Shown here: positions 1,191-55,328 of the stretch, piece by piece
Layout of the letters: each line of letters begins with the position of its first letter
Position numbering within the stretch: the first letter of the stretch is position 1
Origin: Candidatus Falkowbacteria bacterium
GTDB taxonomy: Bacteria; Patescibacteriota; Patescibacteriia; JAACEG01
Reading direction: 5' to 3'
DNA: 64,000 nt
Assembly (NCBI GenBank): GCA_018651725.1
Contig: JABIDK010000005.1
Location: 64,064 to 128,063, forward strand
The notes under the pieces: model-generated
Told to the model about the DNA's origin: nothing
Database searches by the model: none
Seen by the model: the letters and a program-made list of their open reading frames with translations, nothing else
Made by a program: the position numbers and the translations under genes

Positions 1191-1620
1191 AAGGAGTTTT
1201 GGGGTAAAGGGAATTCACCCCTTTAATTCCCCTCTTCCCTTTACCCAAAACGAAAAACAAAATTAAATTCTTTTTAAAAGTGATTTGCATTCGCAAATCA
1301 AAGAAAAACATATACATCAGCTAACAACACGATATCCGGTTACGGCTCTTCCGAGAGCCTCCACCCAAATTTTCTTTCGCTCCGCTCCAGAAAACTTCGG
1401 ATATCGGTAACAGTTATACGAAATAAATTTTTTATCTATACTAGTATTTAAAATTCAATGCGTTGAACACAGCGAAAATTTGATTTTTATTTAATTAATA
1501 AGGGGTAATAAGGAATATTTTTTGTCTTTAAAAAATTCTGGTAACAGAAAAATAATATTTTAATAAGTATTAACTTTTTTTGAAATTAGCTTTAGCTATA
1601 TAAGAAAAAATAATAAAAAA
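1191..1620 (+). repeat. Intergenic repeat module M1: H1 hairpin plus conserved blocks
   Basis: It shares blocks with modules at 2752-3153, 3981-4575, 9964-10221 and 14979-15405. These are TACATCAGCTAACA..CGGTTACGGCT..GCCTCCaCCCAAATTTT (near-identical to M5), CTCCGCTCC, AAAACTTCgGATAtcGGTAACAGTTATACGAAATAAATTTTTT, and ATTAATTAATAAGGGGTAATAAGG. Confidence 0.7.
1196..1251 (+). repeat. Structured hairpin element H1, copy A. Stem GTTTTGGGGTAAAGGGAA / TTCCCTTTACCCAAAAC, 21-nt loop TTCACCCCTTTAATTCCCCTC.
   Basis: It starts 6 nt after the stop of the upstream CDS and is preceded by AAGGAG. The 5' arm is 18 nt and the 3' arm 17 nt, leaving one unpaired G in the 5' arm. The loop is identical in copies A, B and D; copy C differs at two positions. 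Confidence 0.8.
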
Positions 1621-2751: not shown

Positions 2752-3153
2752 AAATATAAGGAGTTTTGAAAAAATGGAATTCACCCCTTTAATTCCCCTC
2801 TTCCATTTTTTCAAAACAAAAAATCAAATTTTCTTTTCTAGTAGAAAAGAGTAATCGCAATTAAAACGAGATAAAAAATTTACATCGCACAACAAAGAAT
2901 ATCTGGTTCAAAATATTTAATTTTAAATTATAATAAGGATTTAAATATTACTCACCCAAATTTTATTTCGTTTCACTTAATAAAACTTCAGATATTCTTA
3001 AACGTTGTACGAAATAAATTTTTTCATTCTATTTTCTTAACAAGTATTTCCTTATAACCACGGCGAAAGTTTATTTTTTTATTAATTAAAAGGGGAAATA
3101 GGTTATTTTCTCCGCTTCGCTACGAAAATAAATTTATTAAATTAACAAAAACT
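2752..3153 (+). repeat. Intergenic repeat module M2
   Basis: Its blocks are H1, the small hairpin CTTTTCTAGTAGAAAAG, CACCCAAATTTT, AAAACTTCAGATATTCTTAAACGTTGTACGAAATAAATTTTTT, and TTATTAATTAAAAGGGGAAATAGGTTATTTTCTCCGCTTCGCTACGAAAATAAATTTATT. The last block is nearly identical to 10128-10195. Confidence 0.7.
2773..2827 (+). repeat. Structured hairpin element H1, copy B. Stem GTTTTGAAAAAATGGAA / TTCCATTTTTTCAAAAC, same 21-nt loop.
   Basis: The 17-bp stem is perfect and completely different in sequence from copy A, but fully compensatory. The loop TTCACCCCTTTAATTCCCCTC is identical. Confidence 0.8.
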
Positions 3154-3980: not shown

Positions 3981-4038
3981 TATTAATTATACTTATAAAG
4001 TAGTTACTTTTTAAAATAACAAAAACTAAAAATAAGGA

Positions 4039-4093
4039 GTTTTGGGCAAAGAGCATTCACCCCTTCATTTCCCCTCTGCTCTTTGCCCAAAAC
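4039..4093 (+). repeat. Structured hairpin element H1, copy C. Stem GTTTTGGGCAAAGAGCA / TGCTCTTTGCCCAAAAC, loop TTCACCCCTTCATTTCCCCTC.
   Basis: The 17-bp stem is perfect with compensatory changes. The loop differs from the other copies at two positions. Confidence 0.8.
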
Positions 4094-4498
4094 AAAAAAA
4101 TTAAACTTTCTTTTCTTTCAGAAAAGATTTAAACTGTTAACAAAAAAATTTACTACGTACAACACGGTGTATCTGGTTACAGAAAATTTCAATATAAAAA
4201 CATCCTGTTACGCTATCGCTTCACAGGATTAATAATAAGGAATAAAATTTTCTTCCACGCAAATCCAAATCTCTTTTATATTAATTTAAAAATGTATCGA
4301 TTTGGACTTCAGATGACACCGAAACGTTATCTGAAATTTTTACACTGCCTTGATGAGTGCCTCTCAAGTAAACCTCTACTTTTTAACGGTGCCTCTTTCG
4401 TTTAGACGAGAAAAGAAAAAGAATTCAATTGCTTCACAACAAAATATAACATTGTCTAAACGGTTCACTTCGTTCTCCCAAATTTTTCTCTTACTTGG

Positions 4499-4511
4499 GG
4501 GGGTCGCCATT
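4499..4511. repeat. GC-rich 13-bp inverted repeat GGGGGTCGCCATT, left copy. Its partner is at 9089-9101.
   Basis: Perfect reverse complements bracket the ABC transporter operon. The right copy begins inside the ATPase stop codon. Confidence 0.7.
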
Positions 4512-4575: not shown

Positions 4576-5562
4576 ATGAAAAACACAATTTTTGCTCTAA
4601 CAATCATCGCAGTTTTGCTATTAGTTGGATGTACGCAAGTACAACAAGATAAAGAATTAAAAGATTTTAAATTAAGTGTAAACACTTGGGTTGGTTTTGG
4701 TCCTTTTTATTTAGCCGATGAACTTGGATATTTTGAAGATGAGGGATTAGATGTAGATATTATTGTCATGGAGGGAACAGCTGAAAGAAAATCCACCATG
4801 ATAACTAATAAGATTGATGCTTTAGGGGACACAGTTGATTTATTGGTTTTAGCAAGAGATGAGGATGTGCCTGAAGTTGCAGTTTTAGAAGTTGATCTTT
4901 CTGATGGTGCTGACGGTTTAATTGCTACAGAAGATATCCAATCATTAGCAGATCTTAAAGATAGAAAAGTTGCTGCTCAAAAGAATTTTGTTGGGGAATC
5001 ATTTTTGCTCTATCTACTAAAAAAGAATGGAATGTCAGTAGATGATGTAACAATTATTGACACAGAATCAGGAGCAGCAGGAGCGGCTTTTGTTGCTGGA
5101 CATGTTGATGCTGCTGTCACATGGGAACCTTGGTTAAGTAAAGCAAAAGAACGAGAGGGTGGCCATATAGTTATAGATAGCGCAGATGAGCCAGGAGTAA
5201 TTGTTGATATTCTAACGGTCAATGAAAATGTTCTTAAGAACAGACCTGACGAAGTAAAAGCTTTAATGAGAGCATGGTTTAAAGCCATTGATTACTGGGA
5301 AAAGAATCCTGATGAAGCAAATGTAATCATGACAAAACACTATGATATGCCAGTAGAAGAATTTGCAGATATAATTTCTGGTGTAAAATGGCCAAGTTAT
5401 CAAGAGAATCTAGCTTACTTTGGAACATCAAATAATCCTGGAATGATTTACGATGTTGCCGATACTTTTGGAGAGGTCTTTTTAGAAACAGGCTCTATCA
5501 GTGTAAAACCGGACTTAAATAAAGCGATTGACGAATCATTGCTTGTTAATCTCTATAAATAA
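4576..5562 (+). CDS. ABC transporter substrate-binding lipoprotein, NMT1/SsuA (NitT/TauT) family
   Basis: Signal peptide with lipobox LLVGC. The VTWEPW motif and overall periplasmic-binding-protein character match sulfonate/nitrate/thiamine-precursor SBPs. Confidence 0.7.
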   Translation: MKNTIFALTIIAVLLLVGCTQVQQDKELKDFKLSVNTWVGFGPFYLADELGYFEDEGLDVDIIVMEGTAERKSTMITNKIDALGDTVDLLVLARDEDVPEVAVLEVDLSDGADGLIATEDIQSLADLKDRKVAAQKNFVGESFLLYLLKKNGMSVDDVTIIDTESGAAGAAFVAGHVDAAVTWEPWLSKAKEREGGHIVIDSADEPGVIVDILTVNENVLKNRPDEVKALMRAWFKAIDYWEKNPDEANVIMTKHYDMPVEEFADIISGVKWPSYQENLAYFGTSNNPGMIYDVADTFGEVFLETGSISVKPDLNKAIDESLLVNLYK

Positions 5563-9090: not shown

Positions 9091-9101
9091 TGGCGACCCC
9101 C
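9089..9101. repeat. GC-rich 13-bp inverted repeat AATGGCGACCCCC, right copy
   Basis: Reverse complement of 4499-4511. Confidence 0.7.
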
Positions 9102-9414
9102 TATTCTAGTCTGCTACGCAGAATTTATATTAAGAAAAGTAAGAGAAAAACTACAGAGGCACCTAAAGTAGAGGCAGTGTAAAAACTCTCTTCGTTCCCT
9201 TCGGTCACTACGAGCCACGCTACGCTCTCACTTCGTTCGGGTCAGATAACAGGGCTTATGCGGAAAATGGCTCGGCTCGCCATTTTCCCAAATTGCTCCG
9301 CTTCGCTACGCAACTTCGCATAAGCCCGATGTTATATAAAATGGCCTAAATCGGCCTCATCATATAACAAGTTGTATCTAGCTACGCCAGTAAAATAAAA
9401 ATTAACTCTTTAAT
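9091..9414 (+). repeat. Intergenic repeat module M4a (variant without H1)
   Basis: It contains the nested inverted repeats GGGCTTATGCG...CGCATAAGCCC (11 bp) and AAAATGGC...GCCATTTT. It also has CTCCGCTTCGCTACG, CCCAAATT and CACTTCGTTC blocks shared with the other modules. Confidence 0.6.
9386..9414. repeat. 29-bp perfect inverted repeat, left copy (GCCAGTAAAATAAAAATTAACTCTTTAAT), ending at the ATG of the enclosed ORF
   Basis: Exact reverse complement of 9959-9987. Confidence 0.9.
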
Positions 9415-9963
9415 ATGTTTTTAAAAATTTATCTTTACATTTTATTATCTTTGTTAATACTTTTTGTTTTACATTTTTTCTTTAAATGGCAAATTCGTAA
9501 AATTATGATGCGCTCAGTTGCCAATAAGCTTGGATTGAAATATATCCCCAAAACAACCAAACCTGCTAGCAAGGAAGAGCTGCAAGAGGTGCCAGACATA
9601 CTCACAGATTCAAGTGAAAAAATTAGAAATCTAATTGAGGGTATGTACAATGGAAAAAGTATAATAATATATGAAAGACAAGTCGTCTCAGGCGCCGGTC
9701 CATACACACAACAAGCCACAACAAAAATGTTAAATATAATTATTGACGACAATAAAATTCTTGTTATTAATTGCAGCGAAATCTTGTTTCCTCTGCCTGG
9801 CAAAATAATTAAATTCATTAACGATTATATTGAAAATGGCCAGCTGCCAAAAACTAAAAAAATGAACAGCGCTTTACTGTTGGTTATTTTGATATTCACA
9901 ATCTTGCCCACAATTATAATACTTGGAATAATAGCTTTAAAATTGGATGAAGCGTTATATTAA
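9415..9963 (+). CDS. Small membrane protein (182 aa), N- and C-terminal TM helices, unknown function
   Basis: The ORF fills exactly the space between the two 29-bp inverted repeats. It has hydrophobic N- and C-termini. Confidence 0.5.
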   Translation: MFLKIYLYILLSLLILFVLHFFFKWQIRKIMMRSVANKLGLKYIPKTTKPASKEELQEVPDILTDSSEKIRNLIEGMYNGKSIIIYERQVVSGAGPYTQQATTKMLNIIIDDNKILVINCSEILFPLPGKIIKFINDYIENGQLPKTKKMNSALLLVILIFTILPTIIILGIIALKLDEALY

Positions 9964-9987
9964 AGAGTTAATTTTTATTTTACTGGC
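9959..9987. repeat. 29-bp perfect inverted repeat, right copy (ATTAAAGAGTTAATTTTTATTTTACTGGC), beginning inside the stop codon
   Basis: Exact reverse complement of 9386-9414. Confidence 0.9.
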
Positions 9988-10221
9988 TTCGCCCAAATTT
10001 TCAAAATGAATATTAATTACAATAAGAAATTTTGAAAACTTTAGATACAACTAAACGTTAGCTGAAATATTCCTTTTCTTTTTCGGGCTATCGCCCTAAT
10101 TGTTTTAAAAAATTTTCAAATTTCTTTTTTATTAATTAAAGAGGGGAAATAAGGTGTTTTCTCCGCTCCGCTCCGAAAACGATTTATTTATAGGGGAAAA
10201 CGAATACAATACAAAACATCA
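9964..10221 (+). repeat. Intergenic repeat module M4b
   Basis: Its blocks are CGCCCAAATTTTC, AAACTTTAGATAcaactaAACGTTAgctGAAATA, and TTATTAATTAAAGAGGGGAAATAAGGTGTTTTCTCCGCTCCGCTCCGAAAACGATTTATTTA. The last block is about 85 percent identical to the M2 3' block. Confidence 0.65.
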
Positions 10222-14978: not shown

Positions 14979-15405
14979 TAATGAGTTTAAGGGCAAGGGG
15001 AATTCACCCCTTTAATTCCCCTCTTCCCCTTGCCCTTAAACAGAAAAAGAAATTTGAAAATTTTTTAAAACAAGTTTTCTTTCAGAAAACAAAAGAAAAG
15101 GAATACATCAGCTAACAGCGTATAACAGGCTACGGCTTCCCTATCGGTAAGCCTCCGCCCAAATTTTAAATTATTTCTTTGTTGTTGCTCCGCAAAATTA
15201 TAACAAAGAAATAATTTAAAACTTCTGTTATACGCATATGTTGTCCAAAATGCCTTCGCTCCACTGCGTCATTTCGGACAACAGTGGTTATCTGAAATTT
15301 CCTTCCGCCAAAACCCCTTCGGGGATTGGCTTCAGAAAACTTCAGATAACCGCGAGGCGTTATACAAAATAATAAAATTAATCTTATTAACTTAACATAA
15401 AACAT
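14979..15405 (+). repeat. Intergenic repeat module M5
   Basis: Its blocks are H1, the small hairpin GTTTTCTTTCAGAAAAC (a compensatory C/G swap relative to M2 and M3), TACATCAGCTAACAGCG...GGCTACGGCTTCC...GCCTCCGCCCAAATTTT, the arms GGTTATCTGAAATTTCC ... GAAAACTTCAGATAACC around CCCCTTCGGGG (a UUCG loop), and CGCTCCACTGCG. Confidence 0.7.
14985..15041 (+). repeat. Structured hairpin element H1, copy D. Stem GTTTAAGGGCAAGGGGAA / TTCCCCTTGCCCTTAAAC, same 21-nt loop.
   Basis: The 18-bp stem is perfect and again different but compensatory. The loop is identical to copies A and B. Confidence 0.8.
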
Positions 15406-26020: not shown

Positions 26021-26743
26021 ATGTTAAAACAAAAAATAGCTATAATTGGATTTGGGAGATTCGGCAGTTTACTTGCTGGAATTTTATCGCCGTACGGAGA
26101 TATTTTTATTATTAGCAAAAGAAAAATTAACGATACCAGATTTAAACAAATTGAATATAAAGATTTAAAAGAAATTGATTTAATAATTTTAGCTGTGCCT
26201 ATTTCATCTCTTAAAAAGGTGCTGAAAAAAATAAGTCCTTATTTAAAACAGGGGTCTGTTGTGATGGATGTCTGTTCGGTCAAAGTTTATCCGTGTCAGT
26301 GGCTTAAAAAATATTTGCCAAAAACAGTTCATATCTTAGGTTCTCACCCTATGTTTGGGCCGGACAGTGTAAAGAAAAATTTAGAAGAACTACAAATTGT
26401 ATTTTGTCCTTTGCGAATTAATAAAGAAAAATTTGATAGCATAAAAAATATTTTTAAAACAATAAAACTTAAAATCATTGAAATTACTCCGGAAGATCAC
26501 GACAAGCAAAACGCAGTTAGTTTAGCTTTAGTGCATTTTATCGGGCGAGGCTTAAGTAAGATAGACGTTGATCATCAGGAAATTACAACTGTTGGGTTTA
26601 AAAGGTTGTTACAGCTTCGCGATAATGTTACCAATGATACTGAGGAGTTATTTAAAGATATGCACAACTTTAATCCTTACGCAAAAAAGATCAGAGAAAA
26701 ATATATAGACTCTTTACAAAAAATAGATTTAATGCTAGATTAA
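26021..26743 (+). CDS. tyrA: Prephenate/arogenate dehydrogenase (TyrA family)
   Basis: N-terminal Rossmann IAIIGFGRFGSLLA. SHPMFGP motif. 2-nt gap after pheA. Confidence 0.7.
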   Translation: MLKQKIAIIGFGRFGSLLAGILSPYGDIFIISKRKINDTRFKQIEYKDLKEIDLIILAVPISSLKKVLKKISPYLKQGSVVMDVCSVKVYPCQWLKKYLPKTVHILGSHPMFGPDSVKKNLEELQIVFCPLRINKEKFDSIKNIFKTIKLKIIEITPEDHDKQNAVSLALVHFIGRGLSKIDVDHQEITTVGFKRLLQLRDNVTNDTEELFKDMHNFNPYAKKIREKYIDSLQKIDLMLD

Positions 26744-26757
26744 AATGAACAAAAAAA

Positions 26758-26830
26758 TAGACTTGTTACATAATAAGCTATGTACCAAAATATGGGGATT
26801 GCAGTAATAGCTTATTATGTAACAAGTCTA
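26758..26830. repeat. Palindromic element, copy 1. 24-bp perfect inverted repeat TAGACTTGTTACATAATAAGCTAT with a 25-nt loop.
   Basis: Left arm 26758-26781, right arm 26807-26830. Loop GTACCAAAATATGGGGATTGCAGTA. A related copy lies at 54037-54195. Confidence 0.85.
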
Positions 26831-26870
26831 ATGAACCTTACATTTCAAACTAAACATAGAGGAGAGTAGC

Positions 26871-34207: not shown

Positions 34208-35245
34208 ATGTTTTTCCATAAAAAAAATAAAAATCAAAAACAGGAAGAAAAAAATCCTAACAAAGGCATAGATATTCATGTAATGCCAAAAAAGTTTTTA
34301 AGAAAAGCTGACGTTAATGACAAAGGCTCAAATGCCGCAGTGTTTGTTTTGATATTTTTAATAGTGCTTGGCGTAGCAGCTTATTTTTTAAGTAACTATA
34401 TTTTTCCAAATGGAGTTTCTTTTTTAAAAAATAATTCTAATAAAGTTGCTGTAAACGATAGTGCAAATAAAAACAGCAATATGCTTGAAAATGAAAATAC
34501 AAATATAAATGAAAACATAAACGATTCAATCTTAAACAGAAATTATAATACAAACACTAACACTAACGCTAATACAAACACTAACACTAATACAAACACT
34601 AACACTAACACTAACGCTAATACAAACACTAACACTAACACTAACGCTAATACAAACACAAGTGTTATTCCTGTTATCCCAATTTCTTCAGACAAAGACT
34701 ATGATACTTTGACTGACATTGAAGAGGCTATTTACAAAACCAATCCAAGTATTTCCGATACAGACAAGGACGGATTTTTGGACGGGCAAGAGCTTGCTAA
34801 TTTATATGATCCGTTGATAGGAGGATCAGTAAGAATAGAAGATTCCAGTCTGATCGATAAATATATTAATCCAACTTATGGTTACTCTATTTTATATCCA
34901 AAAAGTTGGCAGGTAGCTCCTCTTGGCGGTGGAGATCAGGAGATAACTTTTGTTTCTTCTAACAAAGAATTTATTGAGGTGACGGTTATGGATAATTCTG
35001 AGGGACTAACAGCGGTCGGGTGGTATTTAAATCAAATTCCAAAGAGTTCGGGATATAAAGCTGAAAGAGTTTGGGCAAATAATTTTATGGGTATAAAAAG
35101 TCTAGACGGAATGCATGTTTATTTAACTCCAATCTCTGGAAAAAGGAATTTTATTTACACAATTTCTTATATGGTTGGAAGTCACGCCTATATCAGTTAT
35201 CCAGCAACTTTCCAAATGATGATAAGAAGTTTCGATGCCATATGA
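34208..35245 (+). CDS. Membrane-anchored protein with an (Asn-Thr)n low-complexity tract, a TSP3-like repeat and a C-terminal globular domain
   Basis: TM helix. NTNTNTNANTNT... encoded by a hexanucleotide tandem repeat. DKDYDTLTDIEE and DTDKDGFLDGQE motifs. Confidence 0.5.
   Translation: MFFHKKNKNQKQEEKNPNKGIDIHVMPKKFLRKADVNDKGSNAAVFVLIFLIVLGVAAYFLSNYIFPNGVSFLKNNSNKVAVNDSANKNSNMLENENTNINENINDSILNRNYNTNTNTNANTNTNTNTNTNTNTNANTNTNTNTNANTNTSVIPVIPISSDKDYDTLTDIEEAIYKTNPSISDTDKDGFLDGQELANLYDPLIGGSVRIEDSSLIDKYINPTYGYSILYPKSWQVAPLGGGDQEITFVSSNKEFIEVTVMDNSEGLTAVGWYLNQIPKSSGYKAERVWANNFMGIKSLDGMHVYLTPISGKRNFIYTISYMVGSHAYISYPATFQMMIRSFDAI
34548..34670 (+). repeat. In-frame hexanucleotide tandem repeat (AACACT/AATACA/AACGCT units) encoding the (NT)n tract
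   Basis: About 20 consecutive 6-nt units with minor variation, inside CDS 34208-35245. Confidence 0.8.
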
Positions 35246-36026: not shown

Positions 36027-36451
36027 ACAATCAAAAAAGAATCACCTTCATCTTAATAATACTAATTCTCCTAGTTATAATCAGCGTTACCACGCTTATT
36101 TTTTTTAACCAAAAAGACATTAAAAAAGAAAAAAGTCTTATCTCTGATATTAAAACAGCAGAAACCCCTTTATCTTTTTTAAACAACGAAGAATCAGAGC
36201 CAGACTCTGACCAAGATGGTCTGACCGATAAAGATGAAAAAGAAATCTACAAAACCGATCCCAACAAAAAAGATACCGACAACGATGGTTTATCTGATTC
36301 ACAGGAGATCGTTACCTATCAGACAAACCCTTTAAATAAAGATACCGACAACGATGGTTTTAGAGACAAAGAAGAAATTGAAAGAAACCTTAACCCCAAT
36401 GGAGAAGGTGACAGCAAGAAAGGATATATTCTTCCCTTTGGAAATAAATAG
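36014..36451 (+). CDS. Membrane-anchored TSP3-like repeat protein
   Basis: TM helix, then DSDQDGLTDKDE, DTDNDGLSDSQE and DTDNDGFRDKEE repeats. Confidence 0.5.
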   Translation: MPPLNNQKRITFILIILILLVIISVTTLIFFNQKDIKKEKSLISDIKTAETPLSFLNNEESEPDSDQDGLTDKDEKEIYKTDPNKKDTDNDGLSDSQEIVTYQTNPLNKDTDNDGFRDKEEIERNLNPNGEGDSKKGYILPFGNK

Positions 36452-36464
36452 TAATATCAATATT

Positions 36465-39400
36465 ATGCGTAAACTCTATTTAATCTTAATTGCCTTACTT
36501 TTTTTGCCTTTTATTGCATCTGCCGATACTCCGGTAGTTAATAATTTTGAATTACTGGATAATACCAGCGGTGCAAGCGTCTCTAGTCCAATCCGAGGCA
36601 ATGTTGTCAGATTACACGTTACAGCAACCGATCCGGATGGCATTAAATATGTTCGAGCAATTGTTCTAGATCCCGGAGGAACTCAAAAATCCCTGATCAT
36701 TTTACACAACGACGGCGATAGCGCTCACGGGGATTTTAGTGCTAGCGATGATATATATTCCTCTCTCTGGCTGACCTCCTATTCTCTGTCCTCAGGAGTT
36801 AACTATACTATAGTTATTAAAATAATGGATAACTTAGGTAATATCTACAGCTCTAGCGATGGATCTTTTGATATCACAGAAAGCTGCGATTTTGGCTCAA
36901 CCTGCAATAATATTAATGAATTAAGATGTAATAACGGCATAATCGAAAGATGCACAGCTCAAGCTACCTGCAATTATTGGGCGCTTGATGAAAATTGTCC
37001 GGGAGTAAATGTTTGTTGCGGAAGCGGGGTTAGCTCTACCTGCTGCGGTCTGGGACAGATTTGCTCCAGTAACGATAACTGTCTTACCTGCGGTATTACC
37101 TGCGATAACGTCTGTCTTGATTCCAAGTGCGTTAACGATCCGGACTGTCAGCCCGGAGGCTGTTGCGGAGATAACACCTGCGATATTGATATTAACGAGT
37201 GCTCAAACTGTAGTAATGACTGTAATCTAACCGATTGTTGTGGAAATCAAGTTTGCAATAGCGCAGTTGGAGAGGACTTTAATACTTGCCCCGGAGACTG
37301 TCCATGTATCGACAGCGATGGAGACGGACAAATCTCAACTGTTTGCGGAGGCGATGATTGTGACGATAGTAATGACGATAGATTTTTAGGAAATCAAGAG
37401 GTCTGCGATGGAGTAGATAACGATTGTAATGCTTCAACAACCGATGAAGATCTTTGCGATAGCGACCACGACAACTATTGCAACTGTGATGAACCTTTTA
37501 AAATAGGCTCTAATTTAAACGCTATTTGCAACACAAACACAACTAACGGTTTTCATTGGAGTCAAACTTGCGATTGTGATGATAATAATTCAAACATCAA
37601 CCCCGGAGTAACGGAAAACTGCACCAGCCCGGAAGACGATGACTGCGATGGACAGGTAAACGATCTTGATATAGACTGCGGCGGAACAGGCACCCCAGCC
37701 AGCCCAATCTTAACTGTTTCTCCTTCACCGGCCGTTGATGGTGATTTTGTAACCTACACAATGTCTGCCACTGGCTTAATTACTCATTATGAATTTTATT
37801 CTTGCGAAGGAGCAAGTTGCGTTCCAATAGATAGCACTACTTTAGAGACAAGCAGTAACTCTTATTCGCAAAGCGGAACAATAGCAGGCCCAGCAGTTTG
37901 GAACTTCCAACTTCAAGCCTGCAACGATAACGGATGCTCAAACGCAACCAATGTTCAAACATTCATAATTAATCCTCAAACCGTTCCAAACAATGTTTCT
38001 CTGACCGTTACGCCCGATACTGTTAACATTAATGAAAGCGTTACTTACTCCTGGTCCGCCGATGGAAACATCGATAACTACGGACTGCAGTTTAAATACA
38101 ACGACCAACCCTGGTCCAGTTTTATTAACTATGGATTAACCACCTCTATAACCGAAGTTTCCGATATGGCCGGAGATTTTCAAATAAGAGCCAGAGCCTG
38201 TAATGGTCATGGTTGTGGCTATAGTACCGTCAGAACTTTAACGGTAAATGCCGAAGGCGAAGAATTACCCTCTAATGTAAACTTTAATATCTCCCCAAAT
38301 ACCGTAGTTACCGGAGACAACGTTACTTATTCTTGGTCGGCCATTGATGCAGAGAGCTTTGAATATGTCTCCAGATTTAACTCCGGCACTTGGGGAACTT
38401 GGTCTACTCTAAGTAACATTGGCGATCCCGGATCTTTAACAAATCCAGCCGGAACTCCCGGAATTTACGAATACATATTAAGAGCCTGTAATAGCTTTGG
38501 TTGCAGTGAAGATAACATTCAAACCTTAACAGTAAACAACGCCAGTGTAGTTGCTCCAACTAATCCAGCTATCACAATTAACCCAGCTATAACAGAGGTA
38601 ATGGAGAACATCTCCTTTACCTTAGGGGCTAACGGAACAGTTGATTATTATGAATTTTATTCTTGTGAGGGAGCAGGCTGCACACCAGTAGATATGGTTA
38701 ACTTTAATGTTGCTCAAAACCCATATTCATTTAATGCCACTCAAGTAAACCCCGGGACATTTCGCTATATGGTTAATGCCTGCAACATAATCGGATGCTC
38801 AGGCAATAGTAATATTGAAGATTTAGTTATTTACCCAAGCGGAACCTGCGATACCGATAACGACACTTATCTTGAAGATATCTGTGGTGGTAACGATTGT
38901 GATGATGACGACGATGAAATGTTTCCAGGCAATCCAGAGATCTGTGATGGGAAGGATAACGATTGCAACGATCAAACTAACGATGGCTGTAACTGTGTTA
39001 ACGGAACAACTCAACCCTGCGGAACAGATGTTGGATTATGCGAAGCAGGAGAACAAACTTGTATCGTAGGAGAATGGGGAACATGTCTTAACCAAGTAGG
39101 ACCAACCGCAGAAATCTGTGACAACGAAGACAACAACTGTAACACCCAAACCGACGAAGGCTTAACTGTAATTTGTAATAACAATAGTAACTGTAACGAC
39201 AGCAATGACTGCACAGTAGATACCTGTAATAACCCGGGAAGTTGTTTCTCAAGTTGCTCTAATGACCAAGTTACAAGTTGCCAAGATAGCGATGGTTGTT
39301 GTCCAAATGGTTGTAACTTTAGTAACGATAACGACTGTGCTCCAGGTTGTACCCCGGACGGCTGTAACAACAACTGCCCAGTAAACTGTAGCGGTGCAGA

Positions 39401-41780
39401 CGACCCGGATTGTTCAGGAACTTGTCTTGATTGCTCTTGTTCAACCGATACTGATTGTGGAAGTACCTGCGCACAAGGCGATGGATGTTGCGTAAGCTGT
39501 AGTAGCCCAATAGATTTGGACTGTGATATGCAGGATCCAAACGTCAACACCTTCAACGCCGTTGAAAACAACGATAACGCCGATATCTCCTGGACAGTAA
39601 CCGATCAAGGTGGCTCTCAACTAGACTACATTGCAATCTGGCGCGCTCCATACAATGCCTCTAACTGTCACGAAACAAACAAGAGTGGTTGTGTGTGGAG
39701 TCAAATTCAAACGATAAATATCTCCGGAGACAGCCAGACCGGTTCCCATACCGATAGCCCTGGCAACGGATCTTGGTGGTACGGTATGCATGTTTACGAC
39801 AATGCTGGTAACTGGAGCCAGGAACCAACTCCACCGGGAGTATTAAATGTAGAGATAGCTCCAGCGTGCACACCTAGCCTTGACTGTAGCGACTATCCAG
39901 GAAACTGTAATGTTAATCTTTTTGATGGCTGTGATAATATTCTAAATTGTTCTAATAACTGTTCGGGTGGAGAGAGTTGTTGCTCTGGCAGCTGTCAAGC
40001 TCCTACCTGCTCTAACAATAGCGACTGCGACGATAGCAATAACTGTACAACAGATACTTGCAATAACCCGGGAGGTTGTTCAGCTAGTTGTTCTAATAGT
40101 CCGTCTTCTAAAGCGAATGGTGAGGCTTGTAGTGTTGATTGTGAGTGTGCGAGTGGAGTGTGTACTAATAATATTTGTGTTAATGGAGTTAATAAAACTA
40201 TCGTTTACAGAGCCCTATCTTCTCATAATGGTAACTTCGGAGGTAGATCCGGTCTTGACTCTTATTGCGCTAACAACAAACCGGCTAATTTACCTGGGAA
40301 TGTCTCAAATATTCACGCTTTTATTTCTGTTTCTGATACCGACGAGCTTAGAGATATGCCTAATAATTACGGCTATGATTCTAACGTTAGTCTTTATTGG
40401 TTTAAAAGTAGTAACACGACTTTTAATAAATTTGCAGATAATTGGGCGGATATGTTAGATGGTAGCATTCAATTAAGTAGAAGTGACGGAGGAGATAGTG
40501 GTAGCGCTTGGTCGGGAAGTAAGCCCGACGGATCAGTAGAACAATATAACGGTGTAACAGTAAATTGTGATCAGTGGATTTCTGATGCTTATGATGGCAA
40601 TTGTAATCAGGATAAAGATCATTCGTCTGTGTTTGGATCTAATTATACAACTAGCTATGTAGCTGATGGAAGTTATTGGCAAGGATGGATTTATGGATCT
40701 GTTTATATTAGTTATCCTTCAGGATGTATGAGATGCTCTAATTCTGCTTATTTGTTGTGTGCAGGAGAGATGAATGCGTCGTGTACACCTAGCCTTAATT
40801 GTAGCGACTATCCTGGAAACTGCGGTATTAATCTTTTTGATGGCTGTGATAATATTCTAAATTGTTCTAATAACTGTTCGGGCGGAGAAGTTTGTTGCTC
40901 CGACAGCTGTCAAGCTCCTGCCTGCTCTAACAATAGCGAATGCAACGACAGTGATAACTGTACAACAGATACCTGCAATAACCCGGGAAGTTGTTCAGCA
41001 AGTTGTTCTAATACTCAAGCAAGTTGCCAAGATGGTGATGGTTGTTGTCCAAGTGGTTGTGATTCTGGCAACGATAATGATTGCCTTTTTATTCCTGATA
41101 CCTTTACTTGGCGAGACTATAATGGCAGTGATTGGATGAGTCCAATGAGATATCAAGCTATGTGTGGATCTTGTTGGGCGTTTGCTACAATGGGGGTTGC
41201 CGAAGGAAAATACAATATACAAGAAAACAACCCAGCCTTAGACGTTGACCTTTCTGAACAATATGTAACCTCTGATTGTTGTAGTGCCGGAACCTGTAAT
41301 GGTGGCGGCCATTCATTTAATTGCGATACAACAGATGAGTCTTGTTATCCTTATATACCGGGACAAGATCTTGATAGTCTTAGTAGTTGTAGTGGAAGAT
41401 GTGCTGATTGGAGTACCAGAGTATGGGATATGTCTGATTACTCAGTTGCTCCAAATGCCTATACTGCAATTTCAGATCCAGATGCCATAAAAACGTTACT
41501 TATGAACGAAGGACCGGTTTGGGCTGCAATGGGTGATGCTAGCTCTAGTAGTTTTGTTTATAGTCCTGCTGATCAAGCTTGGATATGTACAAACGATGAT
41601 TCACGCGCTCAAGATTTAAATCACGCAATTGTTTTAGTTGGTTGGGATGATAATATTGGTTGCTGGTGGTTTAAAAATAGCTGGGGAATGGGTTGGGGAG
41701 ACGGAGGTTATGGTTGTATAAAATATGGAGAGTGTCTTTTAGAAGCTGATTATTATTTAAATAGTGTTATTTCACCTTAA
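36465..41780 (+). CDS. Giant secreted Cys-rich multi-domain protein (about 1771 aa) with MopE-like metal-binding repeats, four Ig/FN3-like repeats, triplicated Cys-rich modules and a C-terminal papain-like (C1) cysteine peptidase domain
   Basis: Signal peptide MRKLYLILIALLFLPFIASA (the track start at 36354 is an upstream in-frame extension). MopE-like CGGDDCDDSNDDRFLGNQEVCDGVDNDCN occurs twice. Four about 95-aa repeats end in C-N-x-x-G-C. C-terminal C1 peptidase motifs are QAMCGSCWAFAT (Cys), NHAIVLVGWDD (His) and WWFKNSWGMGWGDGGY (Asn). Confidence 0.8.
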   Translation: MRKLYLILIALLFLPFIASADTPVVNNFELLDNTSGASVSSPIRGNVVRLHVTATDPDGIKYVRAIVLDPGGTQKSLIILHNDGDSAHGDFSASDDIYSSLWLTSYSLSSGVNYTIVIKIMDNLGNIYSSSDGSFDITESCDFGSTCNNINELRCNNGIIERCTAQATCNYWALDENCPGVNVCCGSGVSSTCCGLGQICSSNDNCLTCGITCDNVCLDSKCVNDPDCQPGGCCGDNTCDIDINECSNCSNDCNLTDCCGNQVCNSAVGEDFNTCPGDCPCIDSDGDGQISTVCGGDDCDDSNDDRFLGNQEVCDGVDNDCNASTTDEDLCDSDHDNYCNCDEPFKIGSNLNAICNTNTTNGFHWSQTCDCDDNNSNINPGVTENCTSPEDDDCDGQVNDLDIDCGGTGTPASPILTVSPSPAVDGDFVTYTMSATGLITHYEFYSCEGASCVPIDSTTLETSSNSYSQSGTIAGPAVWNFQLQACNDNGCSNATNVQTFIINPQTVPNNVSLTVTPDTVNINESVTYSWSADGNIDNYGLQFKYNDQPWSSFINYGLTTSITEVSDMAGDFQIRARACNGHGCGYSTVRTLTVNAEGEELPSNVNFNISPNTVVTGDNVTYSWSAIDAESFEYVSRFNSGTWGTWSTLSNIGDPGSLTNPAGTPGIYEYILRACNSFGCSEDNIQTLTVNNASVVAPTNPAITINPAITEVMENISFTLGANGTVDYYEFYSCEGAGCTPVDMVNFNVAQNPYSFNATQVNPGTFRYMVNACNIIGCSGNSNIEDLVIYPSGTCDTDNDTYLEDICGGNDCDDDDDEMFPGNPEICDGKDNDCNDQTNDGCNCVNGTTQPCGTDVGLCEAGEQTCIVGEWGTCLNQVGPTAEICDNEDNNCNTQTDEGLTVICNNNSNCNDSNDCTVDTCNNPGSCFSSCSNDQVTSCQDSDGCCPNGCNFSNDNDCAPGCTPDGCNNNCPVNCSGADDPDCSGTCLDCSCSTDTDCGSTCAQGDGCCVSCSSPIDLDCDMQDPNVNTFNAVENNDNADISWTVTDQGGSQLDYIAIWRAPYNASNCHETNKSGCVWSQIQTINISGDSQTGSHTDSPGNGSWWYGMHVYDNAGNWSQEPTPPGVLNVEIAPACTPSLDCSDYPGNCNVNLFDGCDNILNCSNNCSGGESCCSGSCQAPTCSNNSDCDDSNNCTTDTCNNPGGCSASCSNSPSSKANGEACSVDCECASGVCTNNICVNGVNKTIVYRALSSHNGNFGGRSGLDSYCANNKPANLPGNVSNIHAFISVSDTDELRDMPNNYGYDSNVSLYWFKSSNTTFNKFADNWADMLDGSIQLSRSDGGDSGSAWSGSKPDGSVEQYNGVTVNCDQWISDAYDGNCNQDKDHSSVFGSNYTTSYVADGSYWQGWIYGSVYISYPSGCMRCSNSAYLLCAGEMNASCTPSLNCSDYPGNCGINLFDGCDNILNCSNNCSGGEVCCSDSCQAPACSNNSECNDSDNCTTDTCNNPGSCSASCSNTQASCQDGDGCCPSGCDSGNDNDCLFIPDTFTWRDYNGSDWMSPMRYQAMCGSCWAFATMGVAEGKYNIQENNPALDVDLSEQYVTSDCCSAGTCNGGGHSFNCDTTDESCYPYIPGQDLDSLSSCSGRCADWSTRVWDMSDYSVAPNAYTAISDPDAIKTLLMNEGPVWAAMGDASSSSFVYSPADQAWICTNDDSRAQDLNHAIVLVGWDDNIGCWWFKNSWGMGWGDGGYGCIKYGECLLEADYYLNSVISP
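39843..40098 (+). repeat. Intragenic direct repeat unit 1 (about 90 percent identical to 40781-41010), encoding the Cys-rich module CTPSLDCSDYPGNCNVNLFDGCDNILNCSNNCSGGE.CCS.SCQAP.CSNNS.C.DS.NCTTDTCNNPG.CSASCSN
   Basis: DNA-level repeat inside the giant gene. A third, more diverged copy lies at about 39170-39340. Confidence 0.8.
40781..41010 (+). repeat. Intragenic direct repeat unit 2
   Basis: Matches 39843-40098 over about 230 bp with few substitutions. Confidence 0.8.
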
Positions 41781-54019: not shown

Positions 54020-54036
54020 AGTATTTTAGTTTCAAT

Positions 54037-54195
54037 AGACCTATTACATAATAAACTATTACTGCAATCCCCATATTTTGGTAAATTTCTTTGTAAAATT
54101 TTTGACCTATGCTAAGGCATAAGCAAAAAATTTTACAAAGAAATTTCCTCAAAATCTAGGAATTTCGTTACATAGCTTATTATGCAACAGGTCTA
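54037..54195. repeat. Palindromic element, copy 2 (composite). 24-bp arms TAGACCTATTACATAATAAACTAT / ATAGCTTATTATGCAACAGGTCTA, the copy-1 loop in inverted orientation, plus an about 85-bp inner insertion that is itself a 22-bp inverted repeat.
   Basis: 54061-54084 is the reverse complement of the copy-1 loop (24 of 25 nt). The inner AAATTTCTTTGTAAAATTTTTG...CAAAAAATTTTACAAAGAAATTT is palindromic. The element overlaps the last codons of the GT4 gene at 54180-55328. Confidence 0.8.
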
Positions 54196-55328
54196 TTATA
54201 AACTTCCTCGGTTTTTTGGATCATTTGTTCCAAGGTAAATTTATTAATTAGTTTTTTATAGGCATTAGTTGTGAAAATTTCTGCAATTTCTGGTTGCTTT
54301 AAATAGTAAATCGTTTTCTCAGCTATTTTTTTTATTGTTTTAGTTTCCACTTTTCCTTGAACTGACTCAACTAAAAATCCGTTTTCACCATCAGTGATTA
54401 TTTCCGGTACCCCGCCGACTTTGGTGGCAACGATTGGCACTTCAGCAGCCATGGCCTCTAAAATTGCATATGGGAAACCTTCTTTCACCGACGGCAGCAC
54501 GAAAACATCCAGGGCTTTTAAATATCGTGCAGCATTTTTTATTGGCCCGAAAAGAAAATTATTTGTAAGTCTCATTTTTTTAATCTGCTCCTCCAAGGAT
54601 TTTCTTTGCGGTCCATCACCAATTAAAATAAATTTAGCATTATTAAAATCTTGGATAATAATTCCAGCTGCCTCAATCAGCCGATGTAAAGCTTTGGTAG
54701 GGTAGTAATTAGCAATAACCCCGATTACTTTATGATTTTGAGAAAGATTTAATTCACGTCTTGATTCTTCTTTTGATAAAAAATTAATATCATTTAAGTT
54801 AAGGCCATTTTGAATGGTTACAAATTTTTCTTTTGGCGCTATTTTATTTTTAATTCCTATTTGTTTATCTTTTTCACTAATCGCAATAATTTTATTTTTG
54901 TAAATCGCAGAAAATTTTTCCGCGTATAAATATATTTTTTTCTTAATTATATTCATTGGTTCATTAAAAACAAATCCATGAGCAGTGTAAATTACTTTAG
55001 TTTTTAAACCAACGCTACCTAAGCTGCCAATTACCCCGGCTTTAGAGCTGTTAAGATGAATAATGTCTGGTTTAAACATTTTAATAAGTTTACGCATCTC
55101 AAAAACAGCCAAAATATCGTGTAAAGGATCAATTTCTCTTTTTAAATGTTTTAACGGATAATACTCTATTTTTTCTTGCTCTAGTTTTTGAAAAAGAGGA
55201 CTACCAAGTTTCCCGCCCGAGGCCACCATTACTTCATACTTGTCTTTTAAATTACAAGCCAAATCAAGCACATATTTCTGTGCCCCGCCAATTTCCGGCA
55301 AGGTGATAACATAAAGTATTTTTTTCAT
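54180..55328 (-). CDS. Glycosyltransferase family 4
   Basis: EGFPYAILEAMAAEVPIVATKVGGVPEII (GT4 E-x7-E region). Confidence 0.8.
   Translation of the reverse strand: MKKILYVITLPEIGGAQKYVLDLACNLKDKYEVMVASGGKLGSPLFQKLEQEKIEYYPLKHLKREIDPLHDILAVFEMRKLIKMFKPDIIHLNSSKAGVIGSLGSVGLKTKVIYTAHGFVFNEPMNIIKKKIYLYAEKFSAIYKNKIIAISEKDKQIGIKNKIAPKEKFVTIQNGLNLNDINFLSKEESRRELNLSQNHKVIGVIANYYPTKALHRLIEAAGIIIQDFNNAKFILIGDGPQRKSLEEQIKKMRLTNNFLFGPIKNAARYLKALDVFVLPSVKEGFPYAILEAMAAEVPIVATKVGGVPEIITDGENGFLVESVQGKVETKTIKKIAEKTIYYLKQPEIAEIFTTNAYKKLINKFTLEQMIQKTEEVYNRPVA

Follow-up and report, generated by a model that had tools for sequence, protein, structure and literature searches.

The locus

The stretch of DNA analysed here, referred to as the window, comprises 64,000 nucleotides of a Candidatus Falkowbacteria genome (assembly GCA_018651725.1, contig JABIDK010000005.1, positions 64,064 to 128,063 of the forward strand) and opens with a one-directional array of gene cassettes. 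All genes between 60 and 15939 are encoded on the forward strand and are separated by spacers of 260-600 nt that consist of recurring modules. The array extends over about 1-15.4 kb of the window and holds seven sites that resemble the attC sites of integrons, six of which match a covariance model, the remaining one being site 5 (Table 1). Its cargo comprises a DKNYY protein, orphan genes, an S-adenosylmethionine (AdoMet) decarboxylase, a four-gene ATP-binding cassette (ABC) transporter and a type II restriction-modification system with a PDC-S06/LmuB-like ATPase. Between the last two lies a 182-aa open reading frame (ORF), ORF182, enclosed by a perfect inverted repeat. The structural and comparative data show that this 31-bp repeat is helix P2 of an attC-like site, site 5, with the gene in its loop.

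The preliminary description of this DNA had pointed to a perfect inverted repeat around a small ORF, and the repeat is real. Its 29-mer GCCAGTAAAATAAAAATTAACTCTTTAAT lies at 9386-9414 (forward strand) and the exact reverse complement at 9959-9987; the full perfect repeat measures 31 nt, beyond the 29 nt first noted, and lengthens to 36 nt at a 94% match (9381-9416 / 9957-9992). It does not delimit the ORF to the nucleotide, as had been claimed, but overlaps both ends of the gene. Specifically, the left arm takes in the A and T of the ATG, and the right arm the last two bases of the final sense codon and the entire TAA stop. Two copies of the 29-mer were found in none of 100 dinucleotide shuffles of the window, and in 200 flank shuffles the longest exact inverted match from flank to flank averaged 8 nt, with a maximum of 12; a chance origin of the repeat is excluded. 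An assembly artefact is likewise unlikely, because the identical ORF182 protein is encoded on 23 contigs from different samples and several metagenomes, with record names in several assembler styles, and because all nine contigs that were fetched and compared base by base (the other 14 are listed as carriers of the identical protein) match the window in order and orientation, both arms included, and differ from it by at most one mismatch. The strain is clonal, without polymorphism across contigs, and one low-coverage variant carries a single base change within ORF182. Further copies of the arm, for which the preliminary description had proposed a search, were found neither in the 64-kb window, even with 3 mismatches allowed, nor in a viral collection, nor in any non-clonal locus (clonal copies alone among 58 loci). 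An arm scan of a metagenome collection returned zero, which is uninformative, since the collection evidently does not contain this strain (JGI contigs carry the sequence).

ORF182 is a real gene, because its in-frame codon score of +0.26 bits per codon is host-like, equal to that of the neighbouring methyltransferase gene and with the other frames at or below 0, and because it has remote homologues. Pfam, NCBIfam, PADLOC and PHROG hold no family match for it, and a word-indexed protein search returned the protein itself alone; the orphan status that followed from this search was overturned by an exhaustive HMMER scan of 1.84 billion representatives, which identified 15 relatives, the best at 40% identity (E 2.6e-21). 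Its members have in common a hydrophobic helix at each end of the protein and the motifs IRKxMMK..LAxKM, RNxIxGxYxxKxIxIYE and IDxYIExG. The two hydrophobic terminal helices support the earlier label of a small membrane protein; in a single-sequence AlphaFold model they alone are confident, with a predicted local distance difference test (pLDDT) score of 80-95 against a mean of 56.

Several further observations concern this gene and its relatives. The closest homologue, on contig L059 (40% identity), lies outside any attC-like site and is accompanied by direct repeats of about 30 nt (793-822 / 1370-1399, 26 of 30 positions identical) and an inverted 11-mer; a 12-nt inverted repeat around it is at chance level and is better read within these direct repeats. 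On contig L060, the motif GTTAGGCGAAGT (5547-5560), which resembles R' and attI, lies 13 nt past the stop codon of a homologue with 38% identity, and no three-way-junction site was detected on that contig. The best promoter-like match of the region is on the minus strand at 10004-9977 (TTGAAA, 16 nt, TAAAAT; 10 of 12 positions); it takes its -10 element from the right arm and points antisense into ORF182. The left arm contains the identical -10 element without a good -35 element.

Table 1 Features of the cassette array and of site 5 (window coordinates)
Feature	Position	Strand	Remarks
attC-like site 1	1315..1422	+	Covariance model 93.9 bits
attC-like site 2	2883..3013	+	Covariance model 72.3 bits
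attC-like site 3	4153..4335	+	Covariance model 40.2 bits; nested hairpin in P2
attC-like site 4, end of ABC-transporter cassette	9240..9340	+	91.3 bits, E 4e-20
R'4 GTTATAT, left crossover site of ORF182 cassette	9331-9337	+	Complementary to next R''
ORF182 gene cassette as putative recombination unit	9332..10057	+	TT of R'4 to G of R'5; suggested by R'/R'' signature
Mini-hairpin (ATGGCC..GGCCTCAT)	9338..9361	+	At usual cargo position between R' and R''; read from sequence
R'' of site 5, ATATAAC	9362..9368	+	Complementary to R'4 (GTTATAT), not to own R'5
P1 5' strand AGTTGTATCTA, L-box equivalent	9370..9380	+	11 bp, perfect pairing with 10042-10052
Junction J12 GCTAC	9381..9385	+	Also in site 6, L021 and L062
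P2 5' arm (left repeat)	9386..9416	+	GCCAG base and 26-nt AT-rich extension; ends in AT of start codon
ORF182	9415..9963	+	182 aa, hydrophobic N- and C-terminal helices; fills P2 loop
P2 3' arm (right repeat)	9957..9987	+	Holds TAA (9961-9963)
Junction J23 TTCGCCC	9988..9994	+	Family consensus TCCRCCC
P3 hairpin (AA/A.C mismatch/TTTTCAAAAT ... ATTTTGAAAA/C/TT)	9995..10041	+	Structural parse, DNA fold
P1 3' strand TAGATACAACT	10042..10052	+	Parse and folds of both strands
R'5 GTTAGCTG	10057..10064	+	Preceded by spacer AAAC
attC-like site 6	15106..15249	+	73 bits; gene-less close relative of site 5, same J12/J23 type
attC-like site 7, last of the array	15272..15368	+	26.9 bits; in gene-less mini-cassette; plain terminator after next gene

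The repeat as a helix of an attC-like site

Each cassette of the array terminates in an element of about 100 nt that forms a three-way junction and resembles an integron attC site, with an R box (..YAAC / GTTR..) and helices P1, P2 and P3. In order, it consists of a variable P1, the junction GYTAC or GTTC, hairpin P2, the junction TCCRCCC, hairpin P3, at whose base two A-T pairs precede a conserved A.C mismatch, and the return strand of P1; the whole is framed by ..NNNNNAAC upstream and GTTNNNNN downstream. RNAalifold, applied to 15 compact copies, independently predicts the R box, P1, P2 and P3, with compensatory changes in 18 of 28 pairs. A covariance model built on these copies recovers 55 copies at E<=1e-6, among them 49 in contigs of many Patescibacteria lineages that had been gathered through an exact 29-mer of another module; the six copies in the window are all on the forward strand and all within 1-15.4 kb, with none in 16-64 kb. 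Of the cells, 94.9% are paired, a figure that falls to 70% for shuffled sequences and to about 40% with slid partners; double-change cells number 339 against 94 in shuffles. P1 is a perfect helix of 9-11 bp in nearly all copies, and compensatory double changes are also found in the long P3 stem when site 6 is compared with its counterpart on contig L021. Rfam, at gathering and permissive thresholds, holds no match to these elements and reports one tRNA elsewhere. Hammerhead, twister and other ribozymes, tRNA-like elements, repetitive extragenic palindromic (REP/RAYT) elements, IS200/IS605 ends, pdif modules and ORF loops of group I or II introns were considered and rejected, as their defining motifs or proteins are absent.

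The ORF182 locus fits this plan. A structural parse places 9370-10052 in register with 24 other module copies, within a site 5 that extends over 9358-10066, and the minimum-energy DNA folds of both strands of 9355-10070 consist of P1, a long P2 and P3 (z-scores -3.7 and -5.3). The junctions of site 5 match those of the adjacent gene-less site 6. The P2 stem measures about 5-11 bp in gene-less copies but 21 and 31 bp in the two gene-bearing ones. Because P1, the junctions, P3 and the R box flank the arms, the ORF182 unit splits a single module and does not sit between two of them, as the preliminary description had it. The sequences directly outside the arms, GCTAC and TTCGC, are the conserved junctions J12 and J23, and no target-site duplication, another feature that had been proposed as a check, was found around the repeats. 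The covariance model returns weak half-matches alone at site 5, as it cannot span the 571-nt insert, and the statement that site 5 is the sole large-insert copy among about 55 rests on the stricter structural parse. Loose pattern scans for other split sites with large inserts were abandoned, since they were swamped by chance (586 observed, 340-376 in block shuffles).

A second cassette of this type is found on contig L062, from another metagenome, whose protein P0125 is a homologue of ORF182 (30% identity over 158 aa in BLASTP; E 2.4e-11 in the whole-library HMMER scan). The order of elements is R' GTTAGGCG, a mini-hairpin, R'' CGCCTAAC, P1 CGGCGTATCTG, GCTAC, the repeat with the ORF, TTCGCCC, P3, P1' and R'. 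In its P2, a perfect inverted repeat of 21 nt (GCCCAGAAAATATTATTTAAT) encloses the ORF; here too the right arm contains the stop codon, and the start codon lies 17 nt into the loop. The arms differ in sequence from those of the window and yet pair perfectly, which indicates that the pairing of the stem is maintained by compensatory evolution. Judging from the two sequences, the gene-in-P2 cassette is an inherited, conserved cassette type. Mini-hairpins equivalent to that of the ORF182 cassette are present on L062 (51-73) and in the gene-less cassette of the window (15243-15275). The preliminary description had foreseen that a 29-mer confined to this place would be a static palindromic flank. 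Confined it is, but the term is too weak for a stem that a diverged homologous cassette keeps through compensatory change.

Two hairpin families accompany the modules. Hairpins with variable stems and the conserved 13-nt loop TYCGCTMCGCTMC are present at 1373-1395, 3105-3128, 9290-9312, 10158-10180 and 15250-15270; they form P3 tips, appear in 5' leader modules and, at some sites, are nested in P2. Another hairpin lies directly 3' of the stop codons of cassette genes (1191-1262, 2757-2828, 4033-4104 and 14980-15051); its stems vary and covary, whereas its 21-nt loop TTCACCCCTTTAATTCCCCTC is invariant and complementary to the AAAGAGGGG module of cassette 5' leaders (3083-3100, 10137-10150). Exact copies of the 29-mer around this loop occur on 27 contigs from many lineages; mis-binning or transfer is suggested by those that belong to bins with the labels Gammaproteobacteria, Thiomargarita, Atribacterota, Actinomycetota and Woesearchaeota.

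Chimeric cassette boundaries

The boundaries of the cassettes carry the chimeric-site signature of integrons, which is taken here, like the definitions of attC, from earlier work (PMC4889954). In 31 pairs of consecutive sites, drawn from 12 sources (11 contigs besides the window), the variable 5-mer in R' of one site complements R'' of the following site at 4.61 of 5 positions on average and perfectly in 22 pairs, whereas its match to its own R'' (mean 2.82 of 5) equals that of random pairs (2.73). In the window this match spans the 4.9-kb ABC-transporter cassette and the 5-kb restriction-modification cassette, in the latter case by the perfect complementarity of R'5 to R''6 CAGCTAAC (15108-15115), 5 kb downstream. 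AAC and GTT are invariant, and the forms of R'' include GCCTAAC, AGCTAAC and GTACAAC, those of R' GTTAGGC, GTTAGAC, GTTAGCT and GTTGTAC. In four genomes, one and the same attC core gives way to different sequence straight after GTT, in keeping with a chimeric site in which everything past GTT is part of the downstream cassette. The remaining hallmarks of an attC cluster are present as well, namely R''/R' cores, which resemble the integron core sites RYYYAAC and GTTRRRY and include the canonical GCCTAAC and GTTAGGC, an R box, an unpaired spacer, an L-box equivalent and a variable terminal structure. The signature suggests that the mobile unit would be the whole cassette (9332-10057), limited by the GTT crossover sites and not by the 29-mer.

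Imperfect pairs of R' with the following R'' show a bias of their own: counted by eye, the in-box mismatch is A.C on the top strand, and hence G.T on the bottom strand, in four cases and the opposite in none (for example 1412-1419 with 2885-2892). On these small numbers, the bias hints at the bottom strand as the folded one, as in classical integrons.

Ordinary cassettes of the array also lie between long imperfect inverted repeats (1424-1488 / 2819-2882, 4326-4511 / 9091-9252 and 10057-10129 / 15044-15116, the last of these around the restriction-modification cassette and perfect over 30 nt). Bracketing of genes is therefore general to the array and not special to ORF182. At 15240-15368 lies a gene-less mini-cassette in which a hairpin, its loop being the recurrent TTCGCTCCACTGC, stands between R' GTTGTCC and R'' GGACAAC, followed by a degenerate site of the three-way-junction type; this mini-cassette presents the shell of the ORF182 cassette without the gene.

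Recombinase and attI platform

A divergently oriented gene for a 278-aa tyrosine recombinase is located on contig L037 (2215-3051, minus strand), about 6 kb before the start of the window. Between it and the first cassette ORF (3179) lies an attI-like GTTAGGC (L037:3130-3136), at which the array starts, with the cassettes transcribed away from the recombinase gene; no Pc promoter was seen. The attI-like region reads AATTCGCATAT-AACTTG-TTAnnnGAAAT in four genomes (L040, L042 and L043 besides L037), a dif-like 11-6-11 organisation, and diverges after GTTA; in the form AATTCGCATAT-AACTTG-TTAGGCGAAAT its arms match at 8 of 11 positions as an inverted repeat, with the putative crossover at the boundary of central region and arm. 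In all three other evaluable genomes, attC-like matches lie directly on the divergent side of a recombinase homologue.

The recombinase scores 247 bits against NF040815 (XerA/integron integrase), above the cutoff of 220, and 221 bits against TIGR02249 (integron-integrase subfamily), below the cutoff of 265; its similarity to tyrosine-type invertases is weak (54 bits, cutoff about 220). It is colinear, without gaps, with the XerA structures 4a8e and 5hxy, and aligns to VchIntIA (2a3v) in two stretches (15-186 with 8-182, 202-278 with 241-317). The identical NCBI entry is assigned to Candidatus Falkowbacteria, and Patescibacteria hold thousands of homologues of 260-302 aa. A metagenome scan for the recombinase yielded 14 loci, two of them closely related (65-68% identity), neither with an upstream flank to examine for an array. 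The genome also encodes RNase III.

Proposed mechanism and competing explanations

The data are compatible with a model in which the divergent recombinase exchanges cassettes at the GTT that all R' sites share; we infer this enzyme to act on the sites as folded single strands, at G|TT. Most cassettes carry their cargo between R' and R''. In the ORF182 cassette, a mini-hairpin takes this position, and the gene lies in the terminal loop of P2, which would be the equivalent of the variable terminal structure of attC. Once the site is single-stranded and folds, the long perfect stem would serve to shut the 540-nt coding loop, such that P1, P3 and the R box could meet as they do in gene-less sites. 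Selection, possibly helped by arm-to-arm correction, would hold the arms complementary. That the repeat brackets the ORF almost exactly is explained by a loop that is entirely coding and by an AT-rich right arm that provides the first stop codon. The model predicts a circular cassette junction ...TAGATACAACTAAACG|TTATATAAAATGG and an empty-site junction in which site 4 is joined to GTTAGCTG. As a whole, the explanation of the repeat as P2 of a site in an integron-like array, with the gene in its loop and a long stem closing the hairpin, is probably correct, and it agrees with the preliminary description in its link to mobile DNA, in stem-loop extrusion from a single strand and in the location within an array of repeat modules.

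Several points weigh against this explanation. A circular junction, an empty site or a rearranged array, any of which would be direct evidence of recombination, was not seen, because every contig of the strain is clonal. The recombinase is shorter by about 43 residues at the position of the IntI-specific domain, a stretch of about 35-45 residues near patch III that classical integrons need for attC recombination (PMC4889954, PMC4792948). Extrahelical bases in P1 are not evident among the module copies, although the asymmetry may come instead from the spacers of 1-2 and 4 nt and from the three-way junction. The loop within site 5 measures 540 nt, and such a site would still have to fold and recombine with it. 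Gene-in-P2 cassettes number two, the second being on a 1.4-kb contig without recombinase context, and four members of the protein family (L059, L060, L063 and L064) are encoded by ordinary genes outside any attC-like site.

The strongest competitor, which counts as a further point on that side, is a stem that acts in the RNA: in a read-through transcript the two ends of the ORF182 message would pair, and the 31-bp duplex would mask the start codon or feed RNase III, tuning expression or excising a stable monocistronic mRNA, possibly alongside a role in the DNA. The stem does take in the AU of the AUG and a leader without a Shine-Dalgarno sequence, the genome has the RNase III that such processing would use, other cassettes lie between long inverted repeats too (10057-10129 / 15044-15116 and 4326-4511 / 9091-9252), and attC hairpins are reported to influence the translation of cassettes in classical integrons. 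However, sequestration of the start codon is not conserved, given the L062 start codon 17 nt into its loop; the in-box mismatches of R' and R'', four A.C and no G.T on the sense strand, fit pairing of the bottom DNA strand and not of the RNA; chimeric sites and the adjacent recombinase mark the family as a device of DNA recombination; and Rfam holds no matching family. An RNA-level function as the explanation of the repeat is thus unlikely, if less so than the three explanations that follow.

The preliminary description had offered a MITE-like (miniature inverted-repeat transposable element) or insertion sequence (IS)-derived passenger and a DNA-inversion switch as candidates. Perfect terminal-looking repeats around a unit of 602 bp would suit a small element inserted in the P2 loop, and some IS families and group II introns (IS1111-attC elements, group IIC-attC introns) are known to insert into hairpins or attC sites. 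Against this, the arm has no further copy in the window, the viral collection or any non-clonal locus, there is no direct target duplication, ORF182 is a two-helix membrane protein without a transposase signature, and the arms continue a conserved helix of a larger element, their outer GCCAG/CTGGC pairs resembling the original base of P2. The homologue on L062, in the same P2 with different arms, moreover argues for vertical or cassette-wise descent and not for repeated transposition, so that the transposon explanation is highly improbable. The same holds for a switch that would flip the gene relative to an outside promoter by crossover in the repeats. Inverted repeats of 20-30 bp around a short segment are the classic layout of invertons, a tyrosine recombinase with faint resemblance to invertases is encoded about 12 kb upstream, and the minus-strand promoter-like match reads into the segment from the right. 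Yet the nine compared contigs, read as assembly consensus, all show one order and one orientation of the segment; the segment is a complete gene whose 5' leader lies within the perfect arms, so that inversion would place the same leader before noncoding antisense sequence (score 0.02); and elsewhere the putative sites of the recombinase are GTT/AAC R boxes and not the sequence of the arms. Equally little speaks for a neutral and recent by-product, in which fold-back priming or template switching copied the leader 3' of the gene and left a static palindromic flank. A single recent copying event would give perfect identity, and the age of the repeat cannot be judged from polymorphism because the strain is clonal. 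However, the cassette of a protein with about 30% identity has a perfect 21-bp stem of different sequence, so that pairing must either have been maintained over a long time or have arisen independently more than once at this spot, and the compensatory double changes in the long P3 stem (site 6 and L021) also stand against it.

Relation to known systems

The array shares much with integrons. Common to both are a divergent tyrosine recombinase gene beside an attI site with GTTAGGC, a one-directional array, and cassette ends formed by an imperfect palindrome with R''-type ..YAAC, R'-type GTTR.., an unpaired spacer, P1 as the L-box equivalent and a variable terminal structure. The sites are chimeric, with R' belonging to the next cassette, are more alike within a lineage than their cargo, and flank accessory genes (restriction-modification, a defence ATPase, orphan genes). 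By contrast, the recombinase is closest to archaeal XerA and has no IntI-specific domain, and the extrahelical L-box bases that impose the choice of the bottom strand in classical sites are not seen. Here the terminal structure takes the form of a three-way junction that is conserved, junction sequences included; further long and conserved modules lie beside the core, and the two ends of many cassettes are complementary. Cassettes reach 5 kb and four genes, and in two of them the gene lies inside the terminal structure.

A second comparison is with integrative mobile elements exploiting Xer (IMEX) such as CTX-phi, whose integration at dif proceeds through a folded single strand (PMC3442271). 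These elements share with the present array a Xer-type recombinase, a double-stranded target that is putatively dif-like here (11-6-11 at attI), a partner that, as is proposed here, is a folded single-stranded hairpin imitating a recombination site, and the ability to build up arrays at the site. They differ in carrying phage genomes where the present array has small gene cassettes, chimeric sites and a long order of units, and in using XerC/XerD where a single XerA-like enzyme is found here.

Single-recombinase Xer/dif systems (XerS/difSL, XerH/difH and archaeal XerA/dif) resemble the present one in the colinearity of the enzyme with the XerA structures 4a8e and 5hxy and in a putative double-stranded site immediately upstream of the recombinase gene, which is also where difSL lies relative to xerS. 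They differ in that they resolve chromosome dimers, and we know of none with cassette arrays of folded sites.

Further features of the window

Outside the array, an unrelated palindromic intergenic element with stems of about 24 bp (TAGACTTGTTACATAATAAGCTAT / ATAGCTTATTATGTAACAAGTCTA) is found at 26736-26852 and 54023-54197 in opposite orientations, the second copy holding an 87-nt palindromic insert. A 1808-aa ORF (36354-41780) contains internal repeats of about 915 nt (39179-41083) that are rich in Cys, Asn and Asp codons, and a neighbouring gene carries a tandem repeat of the hexamer AACACT in about 18 copies (34546-34659).

Implications

The findings raise the possibility, put forward here tentatively, that Patescibacteria carry a widespread and undescribed integron lineage with a XerA-type recombinase that lacks the IntI domain, a dif-like attI and three-way-junction sites. 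Such a lineage may be an intermediate on the way from Xer/dif (or IMEX) to integrons or a convergent reinvention, and the presence of coding DNA in a hairpin tip beside an empty cassette shell hints at gene capture there as a possible route of cassette genesis. In the literature searched, there is no report of a cassette gene inside the terminal structure and no description of integrons or Xer cassette arrays in Patescibacteria. The system is spread over many lineages of the candidate phyla radiation with near-identical modules.

Two open questions of integron biology are touched by these results: the origin of integrases and folded attC sites from Xer/dif, and the birth of cassettes. The case also illustrates that perfect inverted repeats on both sides of a gene are no certain sign of a transposon or a switch. 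If the recombinase acts on these sites, both questions would become testable in a new system, and integron finders that require an IntI domain and the classical attC model would probably overlook this class. Such activity would also explain how bacteria with tiny genomes shuffle defence and accessory genes.

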